A model generated the notes under the pieces. The model did not search any database. It was not told the DNA's origin and saw nothing but the letters and a program-made list of their open reading frames with translations. Positions 46,381 through 64,000 of a DNA stretch of 64,000 bases are shown here, piece after piece; within the stretch, counting starts at the first letter, position 1, and every line of letters starts with the position of its first letter. Location of the stretch: the NCBI GenBank assembly GCA_963805085.1, contig CAWDTA010000002.1, forward strand, positions 256,001 through 320,000, written 5' to 3'. The translations under genes and the position numbers were made by a program. Source of the DNA: an uncultured Veillonellaceae bacterium. GTDB taxonomy: Bacteria > Bacillota > Negativicutes > JARBTT01.

Positions 46381-46578
46381 TTATTGGTTATAACGTTTAT
46401 TGAATTTTTCAATTCTACCGCCAGCTGTGATATCGCGTTGACGACCAGTAAAGAACGGATGGCATTTTGAACATACATCTACATGAAGTTCTGCTTTAAC
46501 GGAACCAGTTGTAAAAGTATTGCCACAACCGCAAACTACTTTAGCTTCTTTGAATTCTGGATGAATTCCTTGTTGCAT
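46381..46578 (-). CDS. rpmE: 50S ribosomal protein L31 (Zn-binding C+ form)
   Basis: [18 protein letters not shown]. Start set at ATG 46578. Confidence 0.97.
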
Positions 46579-46737
46579 AATTTTGTGCACCTCACTCTTA
46601 TCCCAAAATAGGGCTATAATATTTTAAATGCCGAAGCATTTAGATAAGACTTAGCTTCCCATTTTTGGAGGTAAAGCAAGTCGCTCTTGAAAGATAACTA
46701 ATAATGTAACAAACATACTCCTGTTTATTACCAGACA

Positions 46738-46876: not shown

Positions 46877-47140
46877 TTACTTATTTTTTAGTTTATCTAA
46901 TGCTTCCTTAATCTTTAATGCAACCTTTATTGATTCCCACGAGCTAGTTACGATATAGAACGTACCCAGAATCCTAACCCATGAGTTAGTAGCTATCGCT
47001 ATTTCATTTGTCCACTCCGTGATCTGCTTTATCATTGCCTCACTTAACAGTGTATCTGTTTCACTTTCAATTAAGTTAATTATCTCATTTGCTACAGCAT
47101 CTGTATCAGCATCCGTTGCTATTATCTTTGAATCACTCAT
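46877..47140 (-). CDS. Small hypothetical protein (87 aa)
   Basis: Open frame with RBS GGAG 8 nt before ATG 47140; tightly linked to the upstream small ORF. Confidence 0.6.
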   Translation of the reverse strand: MSDSKIIATDADTDAVANEIINLIESETDTLLSEAMIKQITEWTNEIAIATNSWVRILGTFYIVTSSWESIKVALKIKEALDKLKNK

Positions 47141-47154
47141 ATCGAACACTCCAA

Positions 47155-47403
47155 TTATTTATTTAGTAATGGAAGAAGAAGATATAGATTAAATAACCCC
47201 GTTACTGCAGATGTTGCGATAAACGCTGCTACAGGTGCTGATACACCATGATTAACAAGTAATTGCTTGCTAAAACCAATTGCTTTATCTTTTAAATCAT
47301 CCGTACACTCCGTCGTAGATTCTTCCGTTGATTGATGTTCTAATATAATAGCCTTTAACTCCCCCTTAGTCATTGCCTCCAATTGTTCCGCAGTATACTT
47401 CAT
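47155..47403 (-). CDS. Small hypothetical protein (82 aa) with a hydrophobic C-terminus
   Basis: Strong RBS AAAGGAGG before ATG 47403. Confidence 0.7.
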   Translation of the reverse strand: MKYTAEQLEAMTKGELKAIILEHQSTEESTTECTDDLKDKAIGFSKQLLVNHGVSAPVAAFIATSAVTGLFNLYLLLPLLNK

Positions 47404-47524
47404 TCGTAAGCCTCCTTTTTAAGTCTCAACATAAATAAATCATAGTATACCTTATTATATATACTACGATAGCAAGGGGTTACGTTGTTTTGCTATTGGC
47501 TTGATTTAGGAAAGGATTTAAAAT

Positions 47525-47556
47525 ATTTCAATCCATGCATCCGTGAAGGGTGCAAC
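47525..47556 (-). CRISPR. Solitary type I-C-like repeat at the trailer end of the I-B array
   Basis: Minus strand GTTGCACCCTTCACGGATGCATGGATTGAAAT (32 bp) has the I-C hairpin plus TGGATTGAAAT tail; it lies 32 bp from the last I-B repeat. Confidence 0.8.
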
Positions 47557-47788
47557 TAAGTGAGGGGAGACAACGCCAAAAAGCATTTCTTTACATTTCA
47601 TTATGAGTCAATTCGAAGTCATACCCCCATTGAATAATAAGCCCATTAGAAAACTATTTACATTTCATTATGAGTCAATTCGAAGTTGTTGTATTGGATT
47701 ATGCCAATATACAGAATATACCAGATTTACATTTCATTATGAGTCAATTCGAGGTCATAATTAATCAGTATCCTTATATAATAAATTT

Positions 47789-48030
47789 AGGTTAATAAAG
47801 GCAACCTATAATCCTTTATTAACTGACTAATTATACAAACTAATTGTATAATTGGTTTATAGGTAGAGTGATGTCGTTTGTCTCCTTGAGATTTTATCTC
47901 GTTATCGAAAGACTGACGCCTCTGTCTGTCTAACTGTTTACGAATAAGTTGGATGTTGGCTTTTATTTGAAGCACTTCGTATCTGCGATAAGTCGGTAAC
48001 GTTATTCAGATTAGAGGAACCTATCTAAAT
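47789..48030 (+). ncRNA. Putative IS110 bridge RNA
   Basis: Non-coding left end downstream of the junction -10 (47777-47782). Contains 5' hairpins (GTTAATAAAGG/CCTTTATTAAC; AATTATACAA/TTGTATAATT) and two internal loops with segments matching the target and donor junction. Boundaries approximate. Confidence 0.65.
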
Positions 48031-48051
48031 AAATTCTTTTAGGTGATTTTT

Positions 48052-49227
48052 ATGTTCTATCTCGGTATTGATATTGGTAAAAATACACATGTTGCTTCTC
48101 TCATGGACGAGAACGGTAAAACTGTCTTCAAAGCCTTTAGCTTCCCCAATTCAACTGATGGCGGTAACAATCTTTTAGATAAAATTGCTTCAGTTTCTTC
48201 TGTTGAAATCGGTATGGAAGCTACGGGCCATTATTGGCTTTCTCTTTACTCTTTTCTTGTTGAACACGGTTTCGTTGTCCATGTTATCAATCCGATCCAA
48301 ACAGACGGCTGGCGCAAAGGTACTGAAATCAGAAAACGTAAAACAGATATCATTGATTCTGTTTTAATTGCCGACTTCATCCGCTATGGTAAGTTCCTGG
48401 AAACATCCTTAGCAGATGAAAATATGCTTTCTTTACGCAATCTTTCCCGCTTTAGAAATTATCTTGTCAGTTCTATCGGCGATTTAAAAAGAAAAGCCAT
48501 CTGCGTTTTAGACCAAATTTTCCCTGAGTATCAAACTGCATTTTCTAACGTCTTTGGAAAAACTTCTAAGGAAATTCTTTTGCAGTTAAGCTCTCCTACC
48601 GAGTTTGAAAATGTTACGTCTACTCAGCTTGAAGATATTCTCTCTCAAATTACTTTCAAACGGTTTGCAGCTAAGAAAATCAACAGTATATCTACTTTGG
48701 CTAAAACTTCTTTTGGTATTACTTTCTACTTGGAAAGTCTAACTTTTAAACTTAAACTTCTGATTGAGCAAATTAATTTTATTGAAAAACAAATTATAGA
48801 TGTTGAAGCTCAAATAAAAGTGCTGCTAGAAAAAATTAATTCACCTATTACTACAGTCCCCGGAATAGGGGTGGTAAATGCCGCCACTATTCTTGGTGAA
48901 ATCGGTGACATTAACAAATTCAGCAATCCCTCTAAACTTGTTGCTTATGCTGGCATTGATGCGTCTGTTTGTCAATCTGGTGAATACCAAAGTACGACCA
49001 ATAAAATGAGTAAACGAGGTTCGCCCTATTTGAGAAAGGCGTTGTTTCAATCTGCCTTGATTGCAGCCACTCACGATCCTGTATTTAAGGCTTATTACCA
49101 AAAGAAACGTTCTGAAGGTAAACATCATTTAACTTGCCTTGGAGCAGTTGCCCGTAAACTTTGTTATACGATTCATGCTATTCTAAAAAATAACTGTGCT
49201 TACGAGGTACAGTTGCCTAGAGAGTAA
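48052..49227 (+). CDS. IS110 family DEDD recombinase/transposase
   Basis: GIDIGK, GMEATG and KTDIIDS (D-E-D-D); C-terminal domain with VPGIG, AYAG, QSG serine and SKRG...LR. Confidence 0.96.
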   Translation: MFYLGIDIGKNTHVASLMDENGKTVFKAFSFPNSTDGGNNLLDKIASVSSVEIGMEATGHYWLSLYSFLVEHGFVVHVINPIQTDGWRKGTEIRKRKTDIIDSVLIADFIRYGKFLETSLADENMLSLRNLSRFRNYLVSSIGDLKRKAICVLDQIFPEYQTAFSNVFGKTSKEILLQLSSPTEFENVTSTQLEDILSQITFKRFAAKKINSISTLAKTSFGITFYLESLTFKLKLLIEQINFIEKQIIDVEAQIKVLLEKINSPITTVPGIGVVNAATILGEIGDINKFSNPSKLVAYAGIDASVCQSGEYQSTTNKMSKRGSPYLRKALFQSALIAATHDPVFKAYYQKKRSEGKHHLTCLGAVARKLCYTIHAILKNNCAYEVQLPRE

Positions 49228-52200
49228 TACAACTTTCAAGTATTTCTTTTTCGGCCTGCAAAAACAGGTCTATTTGTTTTGCATAAATATTGATGTTACT
49301 TCCCTAATTTTTATCGATTTTCTCTATTGACTTTTTATAGTTGGTCTTTCTCACATATAGCCCACATTTACATTTCATTATGAGTCAATTCGAAGTGGTG
49401 AAAAAGAAGAGAATGACCTCTATCCCGGTACTATTTACATTTCATTATGAGTCAATTCGAAGTGGCGCACGGAGCGCACACCATACTTGAAAGAACCAAA
49501 TTTACATTTCATTATGAGTCAATTCGAAGTGAGGTAATACTCCAGTGAAGCAGTAGTAACTGGTACATTTACATTTCATTATGAGTCAATTCGAAGTATC
49601 GTTAACATCTACTAAGCCTTCATTTATTATCCAATTTACATTTCATTATGAGTCAATTCGAAGTTGAAAGAGCTTGGGCTGTTTGCGACAGATCCAGACG
49701 AATTTACATTTCATTATGAGTCAATTCGAAGTGTGTCAAAGTTGTTTTTAGTTATAATAATCACTCCTATTTACATTTCATTATGAGTCAATTCGAAGTT
49801 TTGTTTCCTTTTATCGAAATATGTATTAATTGGGTAAATTTACATTTCATTATGAGTCAATTCGAAGTTGCTGATCTAGTTCATCCCAAACTCTTTGAGT
49901 ATCATTTACATTTCATTATGAGTCAATTCGAAGTTATCTTTTCCACCGCTAAATGCTACATAGTAACCCTCATTTACATTTCATTATGAGTCAATTCGAA
50001 GTGTCCTTTGAGTAACACGAGCGATAACCTTTGAGTAATTTACATTTCATTATGAGTCAATTCGAAGTGCTATACTTAAACAAAAATGAGAGGTGATTTA
50101 ATTAATTTACATTTCATTATGAGTCAATTCGAAGTCGGTGCAGTGACATGGCGCATACGTGATTTGAAAAGATTTACATTTCATTATGAGTCAATTCGAA
50201 GTAATGCGAGTATTCAGCCTACTATTACGATTAGACCTATTTACATTTCATTATGAGTCAATTCGAAGTGCTACTGATGCTCATGCAAAAGCAGAAGCTA
50301 CAAGATTTACATTTCATTATGAGTCAATTCGAAGTCGGTAGCCGCAATAGCGTTAATATGTTCCCTTCGGCAATTTACATTTCATTATGAGTCAATTCGA
50401 AGTCAGGTTTAATAAAATGTCCTAATTGCGGTAAAACCAATTTACATTTCATTATGAGTCAATTCGAAGTTTACGTATTCGACTGGCGCTAATGGATCTT
50501 TATCTACATTTACATTTCATTATGAGTCAATTCGAAGTTCCGCCAATCGGTTTGCATAATCCCGAATAATCATATTTACATTTCATTATGAGTCAATTCG
50601 AAGTTTCTTTTGCTTCTCTGACTTGCACCTGGCAAAACCTATTTACATTTCATTATGAGTCAATTCGAAGTAAGGCTGGAAACACGATTGAAGTAACCGA
50701 CTATGTATCATTTACATTTCATTATGAGTCAATTCGAAGTATTGTATGGAGATTCAACGACGGGAACGATTTATTTATTTACATTTCATTATGAGTCAAT
50801 TCGAAGTAGGAATGGCAACTGGCTTGGAGGGATTGTTCCCTAATTTACATTTCATTATGAGTCAATTCGAAGTGTCTAAATCTAAATTACCTAGCATTTT
50901 CTTTCCTCCATTTACATTTCATTATGAGTCAATTCGAAGTCTGCTGGAGCAACAAGAACAATGGCTGTTGGGCAAATTTACATTTCATTATGAGTCAATT
51001 CGAAGTCTTCTGCTGTAGGTAGTGACCAAGGCTTTTGTTCTATATTTACATTTCATTATGAGTCAATTCGAAGTTATGCAATCAAATACATCACCGCAAG
51101 CGGAATCCTCATTTACATTTCATTATGAGTCAATTCGAAGTGCCATGACCGACCCATTAAACAAGACTGCTTATGCTGATTTACATTTCATTATGAGTCA
51201 ATTCGAAGTGTACTGGTTCTCTAGCACCTAAATCAACCATAGCTCATTTACATTTCATTATGAGTCAATTCGAAGTAGGGTCAAAACGAATGAATCTGAG
51301 AACACGTTGGTCATTTACATTTCATTATGAGTCAATTCGAAGTTAGACAAGGTAAGGACGCTATGCAACAAGTATCGAAATTTACATTTCATTATGAGTC
51401 AATTCGAAGTTGGCGGCATAAATGCCCAAATTGCGGAGAGTTTCACATTTACATTTCATTATGAGTCAATTCGAAGTTTGTCTTTCTCTGATTGCCCATT
51501 CAGGCAATTTAATATTTACATTTCATTATGAGTCAATTCGAAGTGGGGAATTTGTCTTAGCACTTGATTGTAGTATTGCGATTTACATTTCATTATGAGT
51601 CAATTCGAAGTACTAGGGTTAATTGTAAATTCGACATTATTCATTGATTTACATTTCATTATGAGTCAATTCGAAGTCTGGTCAACAGTAAATACAAGGA
51701 TTGATATTCCAGCATTTACATTTCATTATGAGTCAATTCGAAGTCTTTAGCGCATTACACCGATTTACAAGGGGTGTCGAATTTACATTTCATTATGAGT
51801 CAATTCGAAGTCAAACAAGGGGAAACAATTGCACAATATTTTCACAAATTTACATTTCATTATGAGTCAATTCGAAGTCAAATAATTCACTAATTTTAAT
51901 GGTTTTTCGTTCTTCATTTACATTTCATTATGAGTCAATTCGAAGTTTTATTGATGCGCGAGATATTGCAAAGTTTGCTTTATTTACATTTCATTATGAG
52001 TCAATTCGAAGTGGCTGGATGGAGTATCATACCCCACGGTAGTTCCAGATTTACATTTCATTATGAGTCAATTCGAAGTTTTATGTTGGACAACCGATTG
52101 GTGGTACAGGTATTCATTTACATTTCATTATGAGTCAATTCGAAGTAGCACCGACTATTATTATATCTGATGAGTTTCACCAATTTACATTTCATTATGA

Positions 52201-55200
52201 GTCAATTCGAAGTGGATTTAAAAACTACTAAATCAATCATAGAATTTGCAATTTACATTTCATTATGAGTCAATTCGAAGTAGGACTTGTCCAATCCTTG
52301 GGAGGGATAATAGTAGGATTTACATTTCATTATGAGTCAATTCGAAGTTCAACTACTTCTCCAGCAAACTCTTTGATTTTTTCATTTACATTTCATTATG
52401 AGTCAATTCGAAGTTCGTTATCTAATGTAACCTTCGCTTTTGACTCCTTGATTTACATTTCATTATGAGTCAATTCGAAGTATATGGTGGTGGCGGTGGT
52501 GGTGTAGCAGCTTTAAAATTTACATTTCATTATGAGTCAATTCGAAGTCAGATGTGATCCTGGTTATTATCATTTTACCAAAGAAATTTACATTTCATTA
52601 TGAGTCAATTCGAAGTTTAACCGATGAAACCATAAAACACTATCGAATTGGCATTTACATTTCATTATGAGTCAATTCGAAGTAAGATAAGAAAAATAAT
52701 CCACCGCTACGATATCTATATTTACATTTCATTATGAGTCAATTCGAAGTACCGACCCCACAGAAATCCCAGGATTCCACATTATCATTTACATTTCATT
52801 ATGAGTCAATTCGAAGTTATTTCTTTATTTTTGCTTGTATTCCCTTCGTTACTTATTTACATTTCATTATGAGTCAATTCGAAGTCCGCTTGTAATCCAT
52901 TCATTGTATTTTTGTTCGAGCATTTACATTTCATTATGAGTCAATTCGAAGTTTTACATTGCTATAGCCAACAGCATAATAAGCACCAATTTACATTTCA
53001 TTATGAGTCAATTCGAAGTCTATACCCCCGAAGCCCAAAACCTAATCCTAAACCAATTTACATTTCATTATGAGTCAATTCGAAGTCTGAGGAAGGGAAC
53101 ACAGTTAAATGCAAGTTAGATTGATTTACATTTCATTATGAGTCAATTCGAAGTCTTGTAATCACTCGCTGCTTTTGTTTTTCTGATTTCATTTACATTT
53201 CATTATGAGTCAATTCGAAGTAATATTCAAAAGATACTAAAGCAATCAGATGAAATCATTTACATTTCATTATGAGTCAATTCGAAGTTTTTTCGATTGG
53301 TGGTTCGCCGCGAACGATACGGACATTTACATTTCATTATGAGTCAATTCGAAGTTAATGTCACACTCAAAAACGCAACAATATTATCCGTATTTACATT
53401 TCATTATGAGTCAATTCGAAGTTTAAAAAAGGCAACCACTTTCTAATCTCACTAACCAAATTTACATTTCATTATGAGTCAATTCGAAGTGGGTGATTCG
53501 GTTGTAATCAATGATGAAGGGCGTCCATTTACATTTCATTATGAGTCAATTCGAAGTACATCAATAAACGTCAATTTAAACATATTTAATAAACATTTAC
53601 ATTTCATTATGAGTCAATTCGAAGTGAAAGAAGGTGAAGCGATGTTAAGAGAGCAGAAAACATTTACATTTCATTATGAGTCAATTCGAAGTCAAGTGCA
53701 TTTTTCCATACGGATTTGTTTTCTACATTTACATTTCATTATGAGTCAATTCGAAGTATTTGGGATGTTGTTTAATTCCACGTTAGAAAGTACATTTACA
53801 TTTCATTATGAGTCAATTCGAAGTTGAAGATTGTTTGAAAGGCATGAAAAAGATTGATGAATTTACATTTCATTATGAGTCAATTCGAAGTTCCTGTATT
53901 GCTACTGCCTGACTGTACTCCGGTATATTTACATTTCATTATGAGTCAATTCGAAGTTCAACCGTTAAGTTGTCGCTTGGATGCAAGTTAGTAACATTTA
54001 CATTTCATTATGAGTCAATTCGAAGTTACATCTTTTAAAACTTCCTCTATATCTCTTTTCAAATTTACATTTCATTATGAGTCAATTCGAAGTGTAGTTA
54101 CTGCGTTTAAGTATCATATCGACGTAAGATTTACATTTCATTATGAGTCAATTCGAAGTTGTCACTCGTAGCAATGCCTTACTATCTGTTGCAACATTTA
54201 CATTTCATTATGAGTCAATTCGAAGTCCTACGAAAGGAGCTGAATAAATGAGTGAAATAAATTTACATTTCATTATGAGTCAATTCGAAGTATTTGGAAC
54301 AAGTGAAGATAGATTTTTGCACATAGATTTACATTTCATTATGAGTCAATTCGAAGTCCAGGCTGCTTTTCTTATGACCGCCTCATTAAGCTCATTTACA
54401 TTTCATTATGAGTCAATTCGAAGTCTCCGTATCTAGACAATGTCCTAGGCTGATAATTAATTTACATTTCATTATGAGTCAATTCGAAGTACCGTCACGT
54501 TGTACAGGTGCTAGTCCTACTTTTTCATTTACATTTCATTATGAGTCAATTCGAAGTGTACGTGCTGTATAACCCAAGTATTGATAATACACATTTACAT
54601 TTCATTATGAGTCAATTCGAAGTGCGTCTTTACCGTTTCTTTGTTTGGCTTGGTTCCATATTTACATTTCATTATGAGTCAATTCGAAGTATGGTCAACG
54701 CGAAGTATTTAAACTATTGATAATCGAATTTACATTTCATTATGAGTCAATTCGAAGTCCCGATGCCATCCATATCGGCTAACTGTTGATACTATTTACA
54801 TTTCATTATGAGTCAATTCGAAGTAATTAAAGAATCACAGAAAATTCCAAGCGTTTCTCATTTACATTTCATTATGAGTCAATTCGAAGTTATTGTTGTT
54901 GTTTATATTAGTATCATTAGCTTTCACATTTACATTTCATTATGAGTCAATTCGAAGTTTCCGAAAAAGATGCAGTGGCGCAAGCAGTATATACAATTTA
55001 CATTTCATTATGAGTCAATTCGAAGTCCTATCAAAATCAGTTAAATCAATCAATGCATGATCATTTACATTTCATTATGAGTCAATTCGAAGTATACAGA
55101 AATTATTCATTTGCGCCGTCACTTTAACCGCATTTACATTTCATTATGAGTCAATTCGAAGTTAAAATGCTTTGTGAAAGCTCCTTAATTTCTACTTGAT

Positions 55201-57259
55201 TTACATTTCATTATGAGTCAATTCGAAGTAAGTGACCATATAGAAGCAAACCCGACTATCTCACATTTACATTTCATTATGAGTCAATTCGAAGTCATCG
55301 GTTTTCACCTTACGCTTGATTGTAATATTTATATTTACATTTCATTATGAGTCAATTCGAAGTAACTTAACAATAATATAGTCTAATTTACATAATACAA
55401 ATTTACATTTCATTATGAGTCAATTCGAAGTTTGTAATTTTTTCCCCATATAATCACCTCTTTAAGGCATTTACATTTCATTATGAGTCAATTCGAAGTT
55501 GCATCGGTATTAACAACTAAATTCCTTCCAACTAAATTTACATTTCATTATGAGTCAATTCGAAGTACAATGCAAAAGATGATGTATTCTGTGTCATTAC
55601 TAGATTTACATTTCATTATGAGTCAATTCGAAGTGATACAAGTGTAATCATCTTTTCTAAATCCATAACAATTTACATTTCATTATGAGTCAATTCGAAG
55701 TTCAGTTTCTTTGATCTTACTGGTAAGGGTTGCAACTTCATTTACATTTCATTATGAGTCAATTCGAAGTGGTCCACCTTTAGGCAATAAAAACGCACTT
55801 GGTAATAAATTTACATTTCATTATGAGTCAATTCGAAGTCCTTACCAGTAAAAGCACAAAAAGCAATATTTTCTCATTTACATTTCATTATGAGTCAATT
55901 CGAAGTAAAATCTTCGTAACATTCGCGGTCATCGGCACACACATTTACATTTCATTATGAGTCAATTCGAAGTGTTTAGGATATTCAGCCGATGAACTAG
56001 TTTCTATATTTACATTTCATTATGAGTCAATTCGAAGTTTGATAAAGAAAAATTCAAGGAATCGGTTGAACGCGGATTTACATTTCATTATGAGTCAATT
56101 CGAAGTCAGGTGGAACAAAGTGCATGAATCGGATATTATCCACATTTACATTTCATTATGAGTCAATTCGAAGTAGTAGTTGCAGGCATTCCGCGTTGTC
56201 GCATAACCAGATTTACATTTCATTATGAGTCAATTCGAAGTTTGAATACCAGTATTACCAGTAGCACCTTGTATTCCTATTTACATTTCATTATGAGTCA
56301 ATTCGAAGTGTATGTTTGGATTAGCTCAAGGTGTTTCGAATAAAACATTTACATTTCATTATGAGTCAATTCGAAGTGCAATTATCACAGGGATTTCACA
56401 AGCAAATAAATTATCATTTACATTTCATTATGAGTCAATTCGAAGTTTATCTTGTGTACCGTCTCGGACTTCGTAATACTCATTTACATTTCATTATGAG
56501 TCAATTCGAAGTCCAACAGGAAATGTTATTGCGTAGCCACCAGCCTTATTTACATTTCATTATGAGTCAATTCGAAGTGCAACCCATACTTGCGAAGTAT
56601 TCACTAAATTTAAATTTACATTTCATTATGAGTCAATTCGAAGTTTTATAATGTGTGTCGACAAATTAATACTTTTATCAATTTACATTTCATTATGAGT
56701 CAATTCGAAGTGCCCCAATCTTCAGCGATGAAACCTGTGTCTCCATCATTTACATTTCATTATGAGTCAATTCGAAGTTCTGATAGCCAAGATAATATTT
56801 AAAGCCCTTCTGAAATTTACATTTCATTATGAGTCAATTCGAAGTTCGATTAAATTGATTGTTGAAGAACTCGGACCTAAATTTACATTTCATTATGAGT
56901 CAATTCGAAGTTGAAAAACATCATAAACCCCACGTTCACGTGTATTAATTTACATTTCATTATGAGTCAATTCGAAGTTCCAGGCTACCGTAGCTTTGGT
57001 AATAGCCTGTAGCGTATTCATTTACATTTCATTATGAGTCAATTCGAAGTAACGGCTTTCGCGATTGTAGAAATGTGTTTTCCGCCATTTACATTTCATT
57101 ATGAGTCAATTCGAAGTTTTACTTGCCCATAACTATAGTTATAAACGCTAATATATAAGTGAGCCACTAAAGCATAAAATGCTCACGAAAAAATGAGCCA
57201 CCTTAAATAAAATAACCTTTAAAATAGACTTAATGAAGTTTATTTTGGAGGGATAAAAG

Positions 57260-58693
57260 GTGGTAATCACATTGGAAGACTATGCTGAAATACGCAGGCT
57301 TTTTAATTCCGGTATCAGCAAACGCGCCATCGCCAGAAAGCTTGGTATATCCAGAAATACAGTAGATAAATATTGCCAAGGCGATACGGTTCCGTGGAAC
57401 AGAAAAATATACACTCGTCAGTCTTCAATCATCAGTGATGAAGTAATGGATTTCATTCGCCAATGCTTAGAAGATGATGAACGCGAAGGCATTCGTAAAC
57501 AGAAACATACCGCCAAGCGAATATTTGATCGTCTAGTTGATGAATGTAACTTTACCGGCGGTGAAAGCACTGTTCGGCGAACTGTCAATCAGCTAAAAGT
57601 GCAGGTGCAAAAGCCTTTTATTCCCCTAGAATTTGCTCCTGGTGAGGCACTTCAAATTGATTGGGGTATTGCTAAAATATATTTAAATGGGCACAAAATG
57701 GACATAAATTTGTTTTGTGCTAGACTCTGTTCCAGTGATGCGCCTAGCGTTTTTGCTTTTGAAAGGCAAAATGAAGAAAGTTTTCTTGAAGCTTTGGTAC
57801 GTACCTTCCAGTATTTTGGCGGAATTGCCAGACGTGTATTCTTTGATAATGCAAAAGTAGCTGTAAAAGAAGGATTTGGCTCACGTGCTATTAAACAAGC
57901 CCGGTATGCAGCTCTTGCAGCGCATTATGGATTTGAAACTGTTTTTTGCAATCCAGCGGAAGGGCACGAAAAAGGTTTAGTTGAAGGACTAGTCGGCTGG
58001 GCTAGGCGCAACATCTTAGTGCCCATTCCAAAAGTTGAAAGCCTTGGAGAATTAGATGCTCTGCTCTTAGAGCGGTGTAATACATACCTGAATCACACAG
58101 TTAGAGGCAAAACGTCCAATGTTGGAAAGTTGCTTGCATTTGAAAAGAATGCGCTGCTGAAAATGCCAAGTTATGTATTTGATACAAGCCGCAGTATTAC
58201 TACAAATGTAGATAGTTATTGTACTGTTCGTTTTGACACGAATAACTATTCTGTACCAATCTCCCATTGCGGTCACGAAGTGGCGGTAAAAGGTTATGGT
58301 ACAAAAGTTGTAATCTACTACCACAATGCAGTGATTGCCAAACACAACCGCTGTTATGGCAAGAAACAAACAATTTATGAACTAGCTCATTATCTTCCTC
58401 TTCTGGAGAGAAGACCACGTTCTATCTTAAATGCAAAACCAGTAAGACATGCTTTACCACAGGATATATTGGAATGGTTAGCTAGTTTACCAGTAAAAGA
58501 AATTATGAAAGCATTAAATCTTTGTGTTGAGCTTGGCGTAAATGCGATTGTAGACGCCAAACGCCAAGGGATACCGCTTGATGCTGTATGCACTAAAAGA
58601 GAACCAGCAACTACGATCATTGATAAAATCACCGTGAAACCAACAGATTTATCATTGTATGATCGTTTGTTAAGAACAGAGGCTGCCTTATGA
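57260..58693 (+). CDS. istA: IS21 DDE transposase
   Basis: N-terminal HTH (SKRAIARKLGISRNTV), QIDWG, FDNAK, EKGLVE, NNYSVP. Confidence 0.95.
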   Translation: MVITLEDYAEIRRLFNSGISKRAIARKLGISRNTVDKYCQGDTVPWNRKIYTRQSSIISDEVMDFIRQCLEDDEREGIRKQKHTAKRIFDRLVDECNFTGGESTVRRTVNQLKVQVQKPFIPLEFAPGEALQIDWGIAKIYLNGHKMDINLFCARLCSSDAPSVFAFERQNEESFLEALVRTFQYFGGIARRVFFDNAKVAVKEGFGSRAIKQARYAALAAHYGFETVFCNPAEGHEKGLVEGLVGWARRNILVPIPKVESLGELDALLLERCNTYLNHTVRGKTSNVGKLLAFEKNALLKMPSYVFDTSRSITTNVDSYCTVRFDTNNYSVPISHCGHEVAVKGYGTKVVIYYHNAVIAKHNRCYGKKQTIYELAHYLPLLERRPRSILNAKPVRHALPQDILEWLASLPVKEIMKALNLCVELGVNAIVDAKRQGIPLDAVCTKREPATTIIDKITVKPTDLSLYDRLLRTEAAL

Positions 58694-59433
58694 ATAGTAC
58701 AATTCATGAGAGCATTAAACTATATGCCAAGCTATTAAAATTGCCCAGTTTTACGCAATATCAAGATGTGATTCGTCAGCTAAAACCCAATATGGGATTA
58801 GATGAAATGCTCTTGGAACTTATGAAAAAAGAATACCATTCACGGCAAGACAACCAATTAAAAAGGCGAATTCATACCGCGCATTTTCCTGTAACCAAAA
58901 CATTGGAAGAACTGAATATGTCTTGCTTCGAAAACATAAAACCGATATTTGTTCAGCAGTTGGCATCCTGTGACTTTATTAAAAAACGAAGAAATATCAT
59001 AATGATTGGACCGCCTGGAACCGGTAAAACTCATCTGGCAATCGGTCTGGGGATGAAAGCCTGTGCATGTGGTTTTCGCGTGATGTTTCGTAGCGCTGCG
59101 ACGATCTCCACTGAACTTTGTGAAGCCAAAGATGCCTACAAACTATCTAAATTAGAAAAGACTATTGAAAAAACAGATTTACTCATACTTGATGAACTAT
59201 CCTATCTAAGCTTTAACCGCCACCAATCTGATCTACTATTTAAGGTCGTTTCAGAGCGCTCTGAGCGAGCTAGTATCATAGTTACCACAAACCTAGAGTT
59301 TTCACGTTGGACGGAGATGTTCGAAAATGAAACAATGGTAGCGGCCCTGGTTGACCGGCTTACATTTCGATCACATTTATTGGATATGAACGGTTCCTCG
59401 TACAGAGTAAATCATGCTATTGCTAACGATTAG
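58690..59433 (+). CDS. istB: IS21 AAA+ helper ATPase
   Basis: GPPGTGKTHLA, LLILDEL, VTTN, ALVDRL; overlaps the istA stop by 4 bp. Confidence 0.96.
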   Translation: MNSTIHESIKLYAKLLKLPSFTQYQDVIRQLKPNMGLDEMLLELMKKEYHSRQDNQLKRRIHTAHFPVTKTLEELNMSCFENIKPIFVQQLASCDFIKKRRNIIMIGPPGTGKTHLAIGLGMKACACGFRVMFRSAATISTELCEAKDAYKLSKLEKTIEKTDLLILDELSYLSFNRHQSDLLFKVVSERSERASIIVTTNLEFSRWTEMFENETMVAALVDRLTFRSHLLDMNGSSYRVNHAIAND

Positions 59434-62045
59434 GTGGCTCAAATATTCATGAGCACAAGTGGTTTAAAATTTCATGAGCGAGTGGCTCACTTTTTCATTG
59501 ACGTTTATACTATAGTCTTAAAAATAAAGCATTTACATTTCATTATGAGTCAATTCGAAGTTTTAACGCTTGATTCAGAACAAGAAAGTTACTATAACAT
59601 TTACATTTCATTATGAGTCAATTCGAAGTCAAATTGGACGTAGTTTGACGCAAGTATTAGATACATTTACATTTCATTATGAGTCAATTCGAAGTCAATG
59701 ATTAATGTTTGCCATTTGTGTATTTCAGGGTAATTTACATTTCATTATGAGTCAATTCGAAGTGCCTGCACCTGGATTAGAACCATTCATAACAAACTCA
59801 TTTACATTTCATTATGAGTCAATTCGAAGTTCACAGCTGGAGTTGCAGCAAATCCACCGTTGCTAATTTACATTTCATTATGAGTCAATTCGAAGTTTAA
59901 TAATATTCTTCATATAGGTTTCCCCTTTTCTAATTTACATTTCATTATGAGTCAATTCGAAGTCGTATATTTTAATGTCGTTCCAAGTATCTTTGCTGCA
60001 TTTACATTTCATTATGAGTCAATTCGAAGTTTGAAAATAGAAACATTACTTCTATTGAGTTTAAAAAATTTACATTTCATTATGAGTCAATTCGAAGTGC
60101 CAATATACACCATCAAGCTGACCTAAGATGCCGACATTTACATTTCATTATGAGTCAATTCGAAGTGTTGCTATTGCAGTAAAACAATATGTAATTCGCA
60201 AATTTACATTTCATTATGAGTCAATTCGAAGTTGAATACAGCAAGAGCACAGTTTCGTGATATTTATAAATTTACATTTCATTATGAGTCAATTCGAAGT
60301 GTCGATGGCCATATTCCATCAGGACACGACATTCTTCATTTACATTTCATTATGAGTCAATTCGAAGTTATGATAGGTGAAGCTATTGTAATTAGTCCTC
60401 AGAAATTTACATTTCATTATGAGTCAATTCGAAGTCGATGGCATTTTGTTTTGTGGTGCTAGTCGCGTACTGATTTACATTTCATTATGAGTCAATTCGA
60501 AGTATACAATCAACTATATTATCAGCGCATTGATACATTAATTTACATTTCATTATGAGTCAATTCGAAGTGCTGACAGCCAACGACTGTGTAATGTGCC
60601 ATCAAAAATTTACATTTCATTATGAGTCAATTCGAAGTGATATATATTTCTGCCAAGCACAAGACATTATATCCATTTACATTTCATTATGAGTCAATTC
60701 GAAGTTCTATATTTTGCAAGTATAATACCGCCATAGAATAAATTTACATTTCATTATGAGTCAATTCGAAGTCGTATGGGAAGATATTGTCGAGATTGCA
60801 AAAGGTACATTTACATTTCATTATGAGTCAATTCGAAGTTGCCGCGCTCGTTTCTTTTGTATTGTAAACACGCCCATTTACATTTCATTATGAGTCAATT
60901 CGAAGTGACATCCGCTCTTGATACTTTGATATCAACATCCTCATTTACATTTCATTATGAGTCAATTCGAAGTGAAACAATAAAAAAATCTATATCAGTG
61001 AATGATACAAATTTACATTTCATTATGAGTCAATTCGAAGTTTGAGAACCCCAGAAGAGCGTGCAGGAATATTGAATATTTACATTTCATTATGAGTCAA
61101 TTCGAAGTACGTACATATTGTTAATTAAAAGAGAAAATCAACCATTTACATTTCATTATGAGTCAATTCGAAGTTTGAACTGCGGTAATAACGGAATTAT
61201 AGATATCTTGATTTACATTTCATTATGAGTCAATTCGAAGTGTTTGAGTATTCGGAGCTGTAAGCATCCGAGATAAATTTACATTTCATTATGAGTCAAT
61301 TCGAAGTCTAATTGTGACTACTACGTCTACCACGTCATTTAAATTTACATTTCATTATGAGTCAATTCGAAGTATTACTTCGCCCGCAAGAAACAGACTC
61401 TGTTATTAAATTTACATTTCATTATGAGTCAATTCGAAGTCGGGCAAGCAAAGCCAATACCTTTATGGGCTGGCAAATTTACATTTCATTATGAGTCAAT
61501 TCGAAGTAAAGACACTATTTGTTATGGCTCTTATCCTATAGACATTTACATTTCATTATGAGTCAATTCGAAGTACAGTATTTCGCTGAATAGTATGTTA
61601 AGCGCTGCTATATTTACATTTCATTATGAGTCAATTCGAAGTGCTGGTGCAGTGATCTTACCAATGAATGAACATTCATTTACATTTCATTATGAGTCAA
61701 TTCGAAGTGTGTTTCTTCGGGGTCATAACCACCAGACAATCTACATTTACATTTCATTATGAGTCAATTCGAAGTATATCCGTTGTACCATAAACCGTAT
61801 AAGGTGAATAAATTTACATTTCATTATGAGTCAATTCGAAGTAGATAAAAGAAAAATGAAAGCGGGGCGGAATTATGAATTTACATTTCATTATGAGTCA
61901 ATTCGAAGTTTGGCGTAGCTGTCTGGAACGCATCTTGGGTAAATAAATTTACATTTCATTATGAGTCAATTCGAAGTTCCGGGAAATCGAATTGATTACC
62001 ATGTGATTACAAACATTTACATTTCATTATGAGTCAATTCGAAGT

Positions 62046-62235
62046 CTTTGCGTAGACAAAGCCTTATTTTTCAATACATAATTTATCATTTTCTGTCTAT
62101 CAGTTATTATATATCATGTTCGTGTATAAATCTGTAAAAATATTTTATCATATATCATCTATATTTCAGTAAATACCTATCACTACTCGTGTCTGTCGTA
62201 CCTCCTACAAAACTGCATTATTAGAGATCGACAGA
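62046..62235 (-). promoter_or_regulatory. CRISPR leader
   Basis: AT-rich 190 bp between cas2 and the first repeat, with the TCTGTCGATCTC...GAGGTACGACAGA inverted motif reminiscent of type I-B leaders. Confidence 0.85.
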
Positions 62236-62514
62236 TCATACAAAGTTTGAGGTTTTATCCTCTTCTTTTATGATAAATTCTTTTTTCATCCATATATTAT
62301 TTCGCCCCGTAAAAATTATACAAGAATCAATCTCTTCCCGCAAATGTTCTTTAACTTCTACCTTTAAATTCATCAATTGACTTTCTGATAACTCTCCTTC
62401 AAACACCGAATTTTGGATATGCGTCAAATATTTCTTGCAAATTTTAAAAACACGTCTTAATACTTTCTGTCCACCTTTATCCAACTTTATATCATATACC
62501 AGCACCATATACAA
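62236..62514 (-). CDS. cas2: CRISPR-associated Cas2
   Basis: LVYDI, KKYLTHIQNSVFEGE. Confidence 0.97.
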   Translation of the reverse strand: MYMVLVYDIKLDKGGQKVLRRVFKICKKYLTHIQNSVFEGELSESQLMNLKVEVKEHLREEIDSCIIFTGRNNIWMKKEFIIKEEDKTSNFV

Positions 62515-62521
62515 AGTAATA

Positions 62522-63514
62522 TCACCACCAAATCCTAAAAGCCTTATATGTATCAGCGCCCATCACATGTTTAATTAGTTTGTATACTTCCAAACGAATC
62601 AAGTGATTGTAGGAAACTTCACGATTTAAGCTTCTATGTTTAATACTTGTCTTCAATTTAGCATCCAATGCTTCCATGATTTTTTTCGCAACAGAATCTT
62701 TCATGCGAATACAATCTACATCTTTGTCAAAATCATTTTCATCAATAATCTTTTTATTTAGCAATGAAAAAATTAAACGATCTGCGAGCAACGGTTTAAA
62801 AATTTCCGCAACATCCAATGCCAAAGAAAAGCGTTTTACCGACGGTTCATGCAAATAGCTAATTGTTGGATTTGCCTGCGTTTTGTAAATTTCACTTAAT
62901 ACCTTTGTATAAATAATTGAATTAACAAAAGAAATCAAGGTATTGATCATATTATCTGGTGGTCTTTTCGTCCGTTTTTCAAAATCAATTTCTACATCAA
63001 TAATCGTGTCCCATGCACTATAATATATTTTTCTAATATTTCCCTCTATCCCCATAAGTTCTTGTACGTCTTTACAATAAGGAATATGCGTACTTAATAC
63101 TTTTATCTCATCCATATACGAAGATAAATCTTTTCCTCGTGCATTATAGTAGCGCAAATTTCGATAGATATTATCATAAGCACCGGATATAAATTCTCGC
63201 GCAATTTCCATTCTTTTTTCGTTGTCGGTATAATGCTCAACCTGTTTTACTAATAGTGAACCCGATACATGTTTTTCCCTCGGGCAAAAACTTCCGGTAT
63301 AAAATTCATAATAATTAAAGAAATGTACCATTACACCATTTTGCGCCAAAAAATCAAGCAATTTTGTATTTAACGTCATTTCTGAAAAAATGTAAATATC
63401 CTTTACACGCTCTATCGGAATATCCTTATTCATTCCATCCTCACGACATAGCTGCAATGAATTATCTTTACGTTTGATGTGTCCATTAGAAAAAACATAA
63501 TAAGATTGTTTCAT
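62522..63514 (-). CDS. cas1: CRISPR-associated Cas1, type I-B-like
   Basis: HFFNYY..Y.GSF, LMGIEG, RPPDN..N..ISF.N, ISYLHEP..RFSLALDVAEIFKP, YKAFRIWW. Confidence 0.97.
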   Translation of the reverse strand: MKQSYYVFSNGHIKRKDNSLQLCREDGMNKDIPIERVKDIYIFSEMTLNTKLLDFLAQNGVMVHFFNYYEFYTGSFCPREKHVSGSLLVKQVEHYTDNEKRMEIAREFISGAYDNIYRNLRYYNARGKDLSSYMDEIKVLSTHIPYCKDVQELMGIEGNIRKIYYSAWDTIIDVEIDFEKRTKRPPDNMINTLISFVNSIIYTKVLSEIYKTQANPTISYLHEPSVKRFSLALDVAEIFKPLLADRLIFSLLNKKIIDENDFDKDVDCIRMKDSVAKKIMEALDAKLKTSIKHRSLNREVSYNHLIRLEVYKLIKHVMGADTYKAFRIWW

Positions 63515-63539
63515 GTAAGCTGCCTCATTTCAAGATATT

Positions 63540-64000
63540 TTAGATATAACAAAATTCATAGTATGCACATGATTTACATGCAGGTTTATCAATGATCTGC
63601 GGTAAATTTGCTTCTGCTAAAATTTCTTTTATCAATTTCAAGTTAGTTTCTACTGTTTCCATGTCCTCTTCTGTCAAAAAAACTTCTTCCGTTAAATGCT
63701 CCTTCGGAACAGCCAGCATCCCCTTAATATCTTTCAAACCGTGTTTATGTAAAACATAGAGATAATATTTAATCTGATTAATCGCCATCTGTTTTTCTTT
63801 TTTACTTTTCTTCACTTCATAAACAATACCATTGTGAATATAGTCAATGTTAATACAATCATCTACCAGAATATGTTTTCGTTCGCGACTATAAGAAGTC
63901 TCATCAATGATTTTGCCAATCTGCACATGTTCATTCTCATCTTCTAAGCTAATATCATGTGCATATAACCACATTTTGCGTGTACATAAAAAATAGTAAG
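63540..64000 (-). CDS. cas4: CRISPR-associated Cas4, 5' end outside the window
   Basis: The frame continues upstream as YYFLCTRKMW; EVKKS, QIKYYLY and C-terminal CKSCAYYEFC Fe-S cluster motif. Confidence 0.95.
   Translation of the reverse strand, partial: YYFLCTRKMWLYAHDISLEDENEHVQIGKIIDETSYSRERKHILVDDCINIDYIHNGIVYEVKKSKKEKQMAINQIKYYLYVLHKHGLKDIKGMLAVPKEHLTEEVFLTEEDMETVETNLKLIKEILAEANLPQIIDKPACKSCAYYEFCYI

Follow-up and report, generated by a model that had tools for sequence, protein, structure and literature searches.

Lone degraded repeats near CRISPR loci and solitary repeat units are both well described, the former in PMC10120712 and the latter in PMC10651486, going by the sections of the two papers drawn on here. 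In those sections of the first study, degraded or standalone repeats that are non-conserved and targetless are treated as non-functional remnants (Shmakov et al. 2023, PMC10120712). The same sections report type I-B mini-arrays located directly before cas6 (PMC10120712). The sections used from the second study describe solitary repeats which mimic type I-C repeats and can inhibit I-C systems, e.g. RacrIC1 (PMC10651486). A narrow literature search revealed no description of two subtypes within one array frame. Here we describe a locus in which a single decayed type I-C repeat stands at the trailer end of a type I-B array, in the same sense and at a spacer-like distance.

The window, i.e. the whole stretch of 64,000 nt that was analysed, represents positions C2:256001-320000 of genome G000; L002 coordinates, which are used beyond it, are converted to C2 coordinates by adding 320000. 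The window harbors a type I-B CRISPR array at 47589-62045 on the minus strand, which was delimited by repeat search and column conservation and contains 157 copies of the main repeat in a single orientation. Judged by the conservation of the flanking columns, the true repeat is 31 nt long and reads ATTTACATTTCATTATGAGTCAATTCGAAGT on the plus strand. The 154 uninterrupted spacers measure 34-41 nt, mostly 36 nt, and according to a k-mer scan this is the sole array in the assembled genome. Pfam assigns cas2 (62236-62514), cas1 (62522-63514) and cas4 (63540-63974) on the minus strand, and the ~190 nt between cas2 and the first repeat (62046-62235, minus strand) are regarded as the leader region by position only. 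The genes cas3, cas5, cas7, cas8b and cas6 are located beyond the window (L002 38-6436; Pfam), with Cas8b exhibiting a CXXC_CXXC domain. Together with cas4, cas1 and cas2 they form a type I-B gene set that adjoins the array. Since cas2, cas1, cas4 and the leader all lie on the minus strand at 62046-63974, the array is read on this strand and its low-coordinate end is the trailer, that is the oldest end. The terminal repeat at this end (47589-47619, minus strand) carries one change, C for A at 47589.

Two insertion elements are found within the array. One belongs to the IS110 family (47756-49365, plus strand; transposase at 48043-49227; Pfam DEDD_Tnp_IS110 and Transposase_20) and coincides with a 1.6-kb break between repeats, the other to the IS21 family (57118-59530, plus strand; istA 57260-58693, istB 58690-59433; Pfam Mu-transpos_C_2/rve and IstB_IS21) with a break of 2.4 kb. 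The genes of both are encoded on the strand opposite to array transcription. As to the spacers, the one at 54094-54128 matches the genome's own cas6 (L002 5751-5785, corresponding to C2:325751-325785) in 35/35 bases. This protospacer has the 5' flank ...CTAAA, and 26 bases also match cas6 of the Propionispira record introduced below. Such a perfect self-target in an own cas gene points either to inactive interference or to a flank that does not serve as a PAM. The odd 41-nt spacer at 56979-57019 is a second perfect self-target (41/41 bases). It matches a chromosomal ferredoxin-nitroreductase protein gene on contig C4 (L051 3677-3717, corresponding to C4:22676-22716), with the 5' flank ...ATAA.

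At the trailer end of the array and in the same sense we found the 32-mer GTTGCACCCTTCACGGATGCATGGATTGAAAT (47525-47556, minus strand; unit 1 in the following). It is present in a single copy in the window if up to 3 mismatches are allowed, with 0 copies expected in 100 shuffles. Covariance model, identity and hairpin fold all mark it as a solitary, decayed type I-C repeat. The covariance model (R1) was built from 7 I-C repeats of 7 genomes of the same class (G003, G018, G033, G043, G074, G104 and G150) and scores unit 1 with 44.3 bits (E 4.1e-9; 96 kb searched, filters off). Compared to GTCGCACCCTTCACGGGTGCGTGGATTGAAAT, the repeat of G104 and G150, 29/32 positions are identical (90.6%). A degenerate pattern search detected arrays with near-identical repeats in 4/60 other genomes sampled as relatives (G003, G018, G033, G043), and in each of these four a Cas8c gene (PF09709) is located a few kb from such an array, which doubles as a positive control for the family search. 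When the sample was enlarged to 400 genomes of the same class, 4 gave matches (G003, G074, G104, G150), all belonging to one genus. Rfam returned no match for 47400-47800 at E <= 10, a result that is uninformative as even the living I-C repeats of G003 score no more than 17-18 bits with CRISPR-DR9, for which the cut-off is 45.

That this likeness to I-C repeats arose by chance is hardly conceivable. It is refuted by the model score (E 4.1e-9) and the 29/32 identity, and with a reversed-consensus control the best matches genome-wide have 10 mismatches. Unit 1 thus matches living repeats in sequence and structure, and on this basis it is a real type I-C CRISPR repeat. The sequence-only reading of this locus had recognised an I-C repeat unlike the main repeats but on the same strand, which score, identity and orientation confirm. 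It had also asked for a match to I-C repeat families; this is provided by the model (E 4.1e-9) and by the living repeats in same-class genomes.

All three differences between unit 1 and the G104/G150 repeat are C>T or G>A transitions. Those at positions 3 and 21 convert a C-G pair to U-A and keep the pair, and the one at position 17 turns pair 7-17 into a C.A mismatch. This agrees with the stem as described from the letters alone, with a compensatory U-A for C-G at pair 3-21 and one internal mismatch (7-17). The 7-bp stem preceding the 11-nt 3' handle is therefore interrupted in unit 1 by the C.A at pair 7-17. The predicted hairpin has -5.7 kcal/mol compared to -10.4 to -13.8 kcal/mol for four living I-C repeats. 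Between 47400 and 47800 the minus strand showed no promoter-like site, and terminator-like sites were not detected either. Overall unit 1 looks dead and appears to decay by ordinary G/C-to-A/T mutation.

Unit 1 and the terminal I-B repeat are separated by a spacer-like gap of 32 nt (47557-47588, minus strand), which was assessed by its length and by database searches. With 32 nt it is below all 154 local I-B spacers, but within the range of 32-37 nt seen in the I-C arrays of relatives (derived from start-to-start periods). The gap length hence fits I-C better than I-B, which supports an I-B repeat standing at the place of the second-last I-C repeat. In searches of the gap, matches of at least 14 nt were absent from the own genome, 50,697 phage records (E >= 0.3) and 72,556 plasmid records (E >= 9) gave chance-level matches only, and C2:300000-350000 (blastn-short, word size 7, E <= 50) returned nothing but the gap itself, thus no partial promoter target. 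Neither is there complementarity of 11 nt or more to the region of the small ORFs downstream. The target in phages or in promoters of cas genes and small ORFs which had been considered, with partial matches allowed, therefore does not emerge above chance.

Two further statements of the sequence-only reading on this junction are borne out, namely the 32-bp spacer-like distance to the terminal I-B repeat (47557-47588), though it lies outside the local range, and the mutated state of this repeat (C for A at 47589). Its suggestion that ATTTC at the junction is the start of a second I-C repeat is rejected on 5-mer frequency, I-B match and spacer length: the 5-mer occurs 2.6 times per kb on the plus strand of the non-array part of the window (1-47500), CATTTC (47583-47588) fits positions 6-11 of the I-B repeat equally well, and a second I-C repeat at this site would leave a spacer of only 27 nt. 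We also rejected that unit 1 belongs to an I-B spacer which had been acquired from a foreign I-C array, as 34-41 nt past the terminal repeat end inside unit 1 and no I-B repeat follows.

The genome was then searched for other traces of an I-C system. Neither Cas8c nor Cas5d (PF09709, TIGR01876) was found in G000, whose completeness is estimated at 83%, while PF09709 was positive in 4/4 control genomes. I-C genes could thus be located in the unassembled part. A tblastn search with Cas3, Cas5d, Cas8c and Cas7c of G033 against G000 (E <= 10) matched only the I-B cas3 and no I-C cas pseudogene fragment; the ORF list used contains no I-C Cas4, Cas1 or Cas2. Accordingly, of the traces that the sequence-only reading proposed to look for, cas5d and cas8c are missing from the 83%-complete assembly, and other I-C repeats are present in the form of two further decayed units.

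The full-length relic ATCGCACCTTTCGCAAGTGCGTAGATTGAAAT (unit 2; C2:337766-337797, L002 17766-17797, minus strand) was identified by fuzzy search and reaches 34.0 bits (E 2.3e-6). Unit 3 (C2:332618-332641, L002 12618-12641, minus strand; 16.1 bits, E 0.14) is a partial relic consisting of the 3' 23 nt only, 21 of which match the living repeat. The two relics share the strand of unit 1 and lie within 34 kb of it (unit 3 at 29 kb, unit 2 at 34 kb). Unit 2 is located upstream of cas6 at a distance of 11 kb and is flanked by a Cro/C1-type HTH gene with a hairpin terminator and by an ORF of 129 aa; apart from the HTH, the ORFs around it show no informative Pfam or PHROG family. Units 1 and 2 differ at 9/32 positions, exclusively by transitions. 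In unit 2 a double change keeps pair 9-15, and pair 8-16 is broken. The probability that a pair is kept by chance was calculated as ~0.12 for unit 1 (pair 3-21) and ~0.37 for unit 2 (pair 9-15), jointly ~0.04. This is a weak hint that the hairpin is or was under selection, possibly at the time when the repeats were in use. No I-C-like sequence above a reversed-sequence control and no tandem I-C repeats with spacers were detected in the rest of the genome. The location of all three units on one strand within 34 kb would fit a single old I-C array that was torn apart by insertions. The idea that units 1 and 2 represent island ends or att sites was discarded, given that high-identity synteny with the sister genome G001 resumes at or beyond ~C2:349100, ~11 kb past unit 2, and that the two units differ at 9/32 positions.

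The neighbourhood of unit 3 shows some further peculiarities. An element of 72-84 nt is present in two copies in G000 (L002 7561-7632 and 16681-16764) and recurs in the Propionispira record (88% identity), where it immediately precedes cas6. The ~9 kb between the two copies contain, besides unit 3, a CAAX protease gene and three TctC-family genes in tandem. At L002 8650-11973 three ORFs of 339 aa are arranged head to tail with equal length and spacing; the one that was scanned is a TctC-family solute receptor.

On its other side unit 1 is close to the edge of a variable island. The same-genus sister G001 matches the flank, which includes a DUF1385 gene, rpmE (46381-46590) and two small ORFs, at 98% and diverges at 47491/47492. 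Its continuation past 47491 has no match in G000, and G001 contains neither I-C units nor I-B repeats. Contigs of 4/4 metagenome runs likewise match the flank (95-99% identity) as far as 47491 and then diverge. Since G001 and all four runs depart at 47491, this site is the edge of a variable island, and unit 1 belongs to the island and not to the conserved flank; 33 nt (47492-47524) lie between the edge and unit 1. Among the metagenome continuations, X3 and X4 run as G001 or nearly so, and X1 is different. At least three different sequences are hence seen after 47491, those of G000, of G001 with X3/X4, and of X1. No contig of the four runs spans 47520-47763, which is to be read as a blank and not as absence. 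Scanning metagenomes with a pattern of 24 nt derived from the conserved flank gave nothing. In the short loci around the I-C arrays or cas8c of G003, G018, G033 and G043, a limited sample, tblastn matched none of rpmE, DUF1385 and the small ORFs. An I-C system next to rpmE, for which the sequence-only reading had proposed to inspect relatives, is found in none of the relatives examined.

The nearest relative found for the I-B system is a record of Propionispira raffinosivorans DSM 20765, with a Cas8b that is 86% identical and near-identical repeats in two arrays. Three metagenome contigs carry the same I-B repeat family. Within the sequence covered, an I-C unit is present at 0/5 of the trailer ends of these arrays (two of Propionispira raffinosivorans DSM 20765, three metagenome contigs), which show progressively degenerate I-B repeats or unrelated sequence instead. 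In the Propionispira record rpmE and the CRISPR arrays are on different contigs, and I-C units are absent from this genome. Right before its cas6 a single degenerate I-B-like repeat is visible (L037 ~1914-1943, G061:C27; by eye, unscored). G000 has no I-B-like repeat copy directly before cas6.

Taken together, unit 1 is probably a fossil: it would be the last repeat of an I-C array that has since been lost, with the I-B array joined to the remaining stump by recombination. Unit 1 would then have been the trailer-end repeat of the vanished array, and the 32-nt gap is most likely the last spacer of that array. The joining event would have taken place in or beside an I-C repeat, and subsequently the I-B array would have gained repeats at its leader end until it reached 157. 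Either G000 itself or the donor genome of the island may have been the place of the join. Because there is no I-C cas fragment, unit 1 lies in a variable island and no relative examined has an I-C locus here, the junction may predate the arrival of the island. Today unit 1 would lack a cognate nuclease and partner genes and could at most form the passive 3' end of I-B read-through transcripts. Family membership, decay, the I-C genes and other arrays missing in the assembly, the non-conservation and the nearby relics are observed; this recombination history and the lack of function are inferred. One option of the sequence-only reading was a fossil I-C locus replaced in place by an I-B system. 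An I-C fossil is indeed best supported (family member, decay, no I-C cas genes, two relics), the replacement in place is not.

Several functional roles of unit 1 were weighed against this. It might be a working chimeric unit with an I-B 5' handle released by Cas6 cleavage, a 32-nt guide and an I-C hairpin that protects or terminates the last crRNA. The same strand, the spacer-like distance, a hairpin that is weakened yet still folds at -5.7 kcal/mol and the two changes preserving a base pair would fit such a unit. Nevertheless we regard it as decidedly unlikely: the 32 nt have no target in genome, phages or plasmids, the gap length is outside all 154 local spacers, none of the five related arrays ends in this way, two IS elements are inserted between the leader and the trailer end, and 47400-47800 offers no terminator-like site. 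Cross-type processing or a chimeric crRNA, as the sequence-only reading had put it, receives no support either, with no Cas5d, no target of the gap and 0/5 related arrays. A graft in register, in which the I-B array replaced the second-last I-C repeat and a single transcript combines I-B handle, I-C-length spacer and I-C hairpin, appears improbable as well. Its hairpin would be retained by weak selection, at which the compensatory pairs of units 1 and 2 hint, either as a 3' end structure or as a decoy for I-C systems that the island encounters in other hosts. A role in regulating the two small ORFs downstream (82 and 90 aa; 47155-47403 and 46877-47149, together 46877-47403, minus strand), another earlier option, is very improbable and has only proximity in its favour, as unit 1 precedes the first ORF by 121 nt on the same strand. 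These ORFs, without Pfam or PHROG match, are part of the conserved flank outside the island. In G001, where the unit is missing, they and the region upstream of them show 98% conservation, they also occur in the contigs of the four metagenome runs that depart before unit 1, and no stretch of 11 nt or more in the gap is complementary to this region.

It is also unlikely, though less so than the small-ORF role, that the three units are solitary repeats of the Racr type or crRNA-like decoys on mobile DNA of the island, blunting an I-C system of the present or a former host. For the present host this presumes an I-C system in the missing 17% of the genome. The inhibition described for RacrIC1 (PMC10651486, sections drawn on) provides a precedent, unit 2 sits between the Cro/C1-type HTH gene and a hairpin terminator, and unit 1 has kept 90.6% identity to a living repeat. 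On the other hand no I-C system was found in the host, whereas 83% of such units match the host subtype according to the sections used of PMC10651486. Moreover a phage context is missing, as PHROGs yielded just a weak regulator match and one ORF with phage-family matches 3 kb from unit 2. Promoter-like sites do not exceed chance expectation, the hairpins are weakened, and no viral contig with either decayed variant (units 1 and 2) was found. The regulatory or anti-CRISPR role once suggested for unit 1 remains unsupported, with no I-C proteins found, no gap target and a weakened hairpin. The sole viral match is a GC-rich contig (L050 5-102, minus strand) that ends in two canonical I-C repeats of this family, 34 nt apart; this pair is either a mini-array or an array cut at the contig end.

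The fossil last repeat, too, has points to be set against it. A relic left by chance would not have to be placed at spacer distance and in the I-B sense, such that an additional, hypothetical recombination step is needed. The kept pairs in units 1 and 2 (joint ~0.04) hint weakly at selection, there is no surviving I-C cas pseudogene fragment and no relative with an I-C locus at this site, and at 83% completeness the I-C genes could sit in the unassembled part.

As a fossil, unit 1 would be a natural record of CRISPR subtype turnover, with a dead I-C repeat, along with what is probably its last spacer, at the old end of a very active-looking I-B array, carried on an island that varies among closely related strains. 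Array callers and subtype predictors can be misled by stumps of this kind, which would also demonstrate that recombination inside or beside repeats is able to join whole arrays. If unit 1 were functional, it would constitute a new kind of cross-subtype element, but the evidence points the other way.

Among the known systems, living I-C repeats, located in arrays beside cas3-cas5d-cas8c-cas7 operons (G003, G018, G033, G043, G074, G104, G150), are the direct counterpart of unit 1. It shares with them the length of 32 nt, the recognisable 5' GTCGCACCC and 3' GGATTGAAAT handle and a 7-bp stem in the same register. In contrast to them it is a single copy with three transitions and one stem mismatch in a genome without detected I-C cas genes. 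Racr elements such as RacrIC1 (Camara-Wilpert et al. 2023, PMC10651486), as depicted in the sections drawn on, are likewise solitary, I-C-like and without cas genes beside them. Unit 1 differs from RacrIC1, as described there (PMC10651486), in not being located on a recognisable phage or plasmid, in its host lacking the subtype, in showing no promoter-like site directly upstream and in its weakened hairpin. As to a mobile-element location, it resides in a variable island with IS elements, with no phage genes adjoining; a matching subtype was not found in the host.

The crRNA-like mini-arrays (CreA, crlRNAs), as presented in the sections used of PMC10120712, share the layout of a repeat, ~32 nt and a degenerate second repeat. 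Here the second repeat is of a foreign subtype, and in contrast to what these sections report for CreA and crlRNAs (PMC10120712) the gap has no partial promoter target and the arrangement is conserved in 0/5 related loci. Searches for both hallmarks, spacer-promoter complementarity and conservation in related loci (0/5), were thus negative at this locus. Unit 1 resembles the remnants of Shmakov et al. 2023 (PMC10120712, same sections) in being lone, partly degraded and beside a CRISPR-cas locus. According to these sections such remnants are copies of the repeat of their own locus (PMC10120712), whereas unit 1 is of another subtype, an I-C repeat beside an I-B array.
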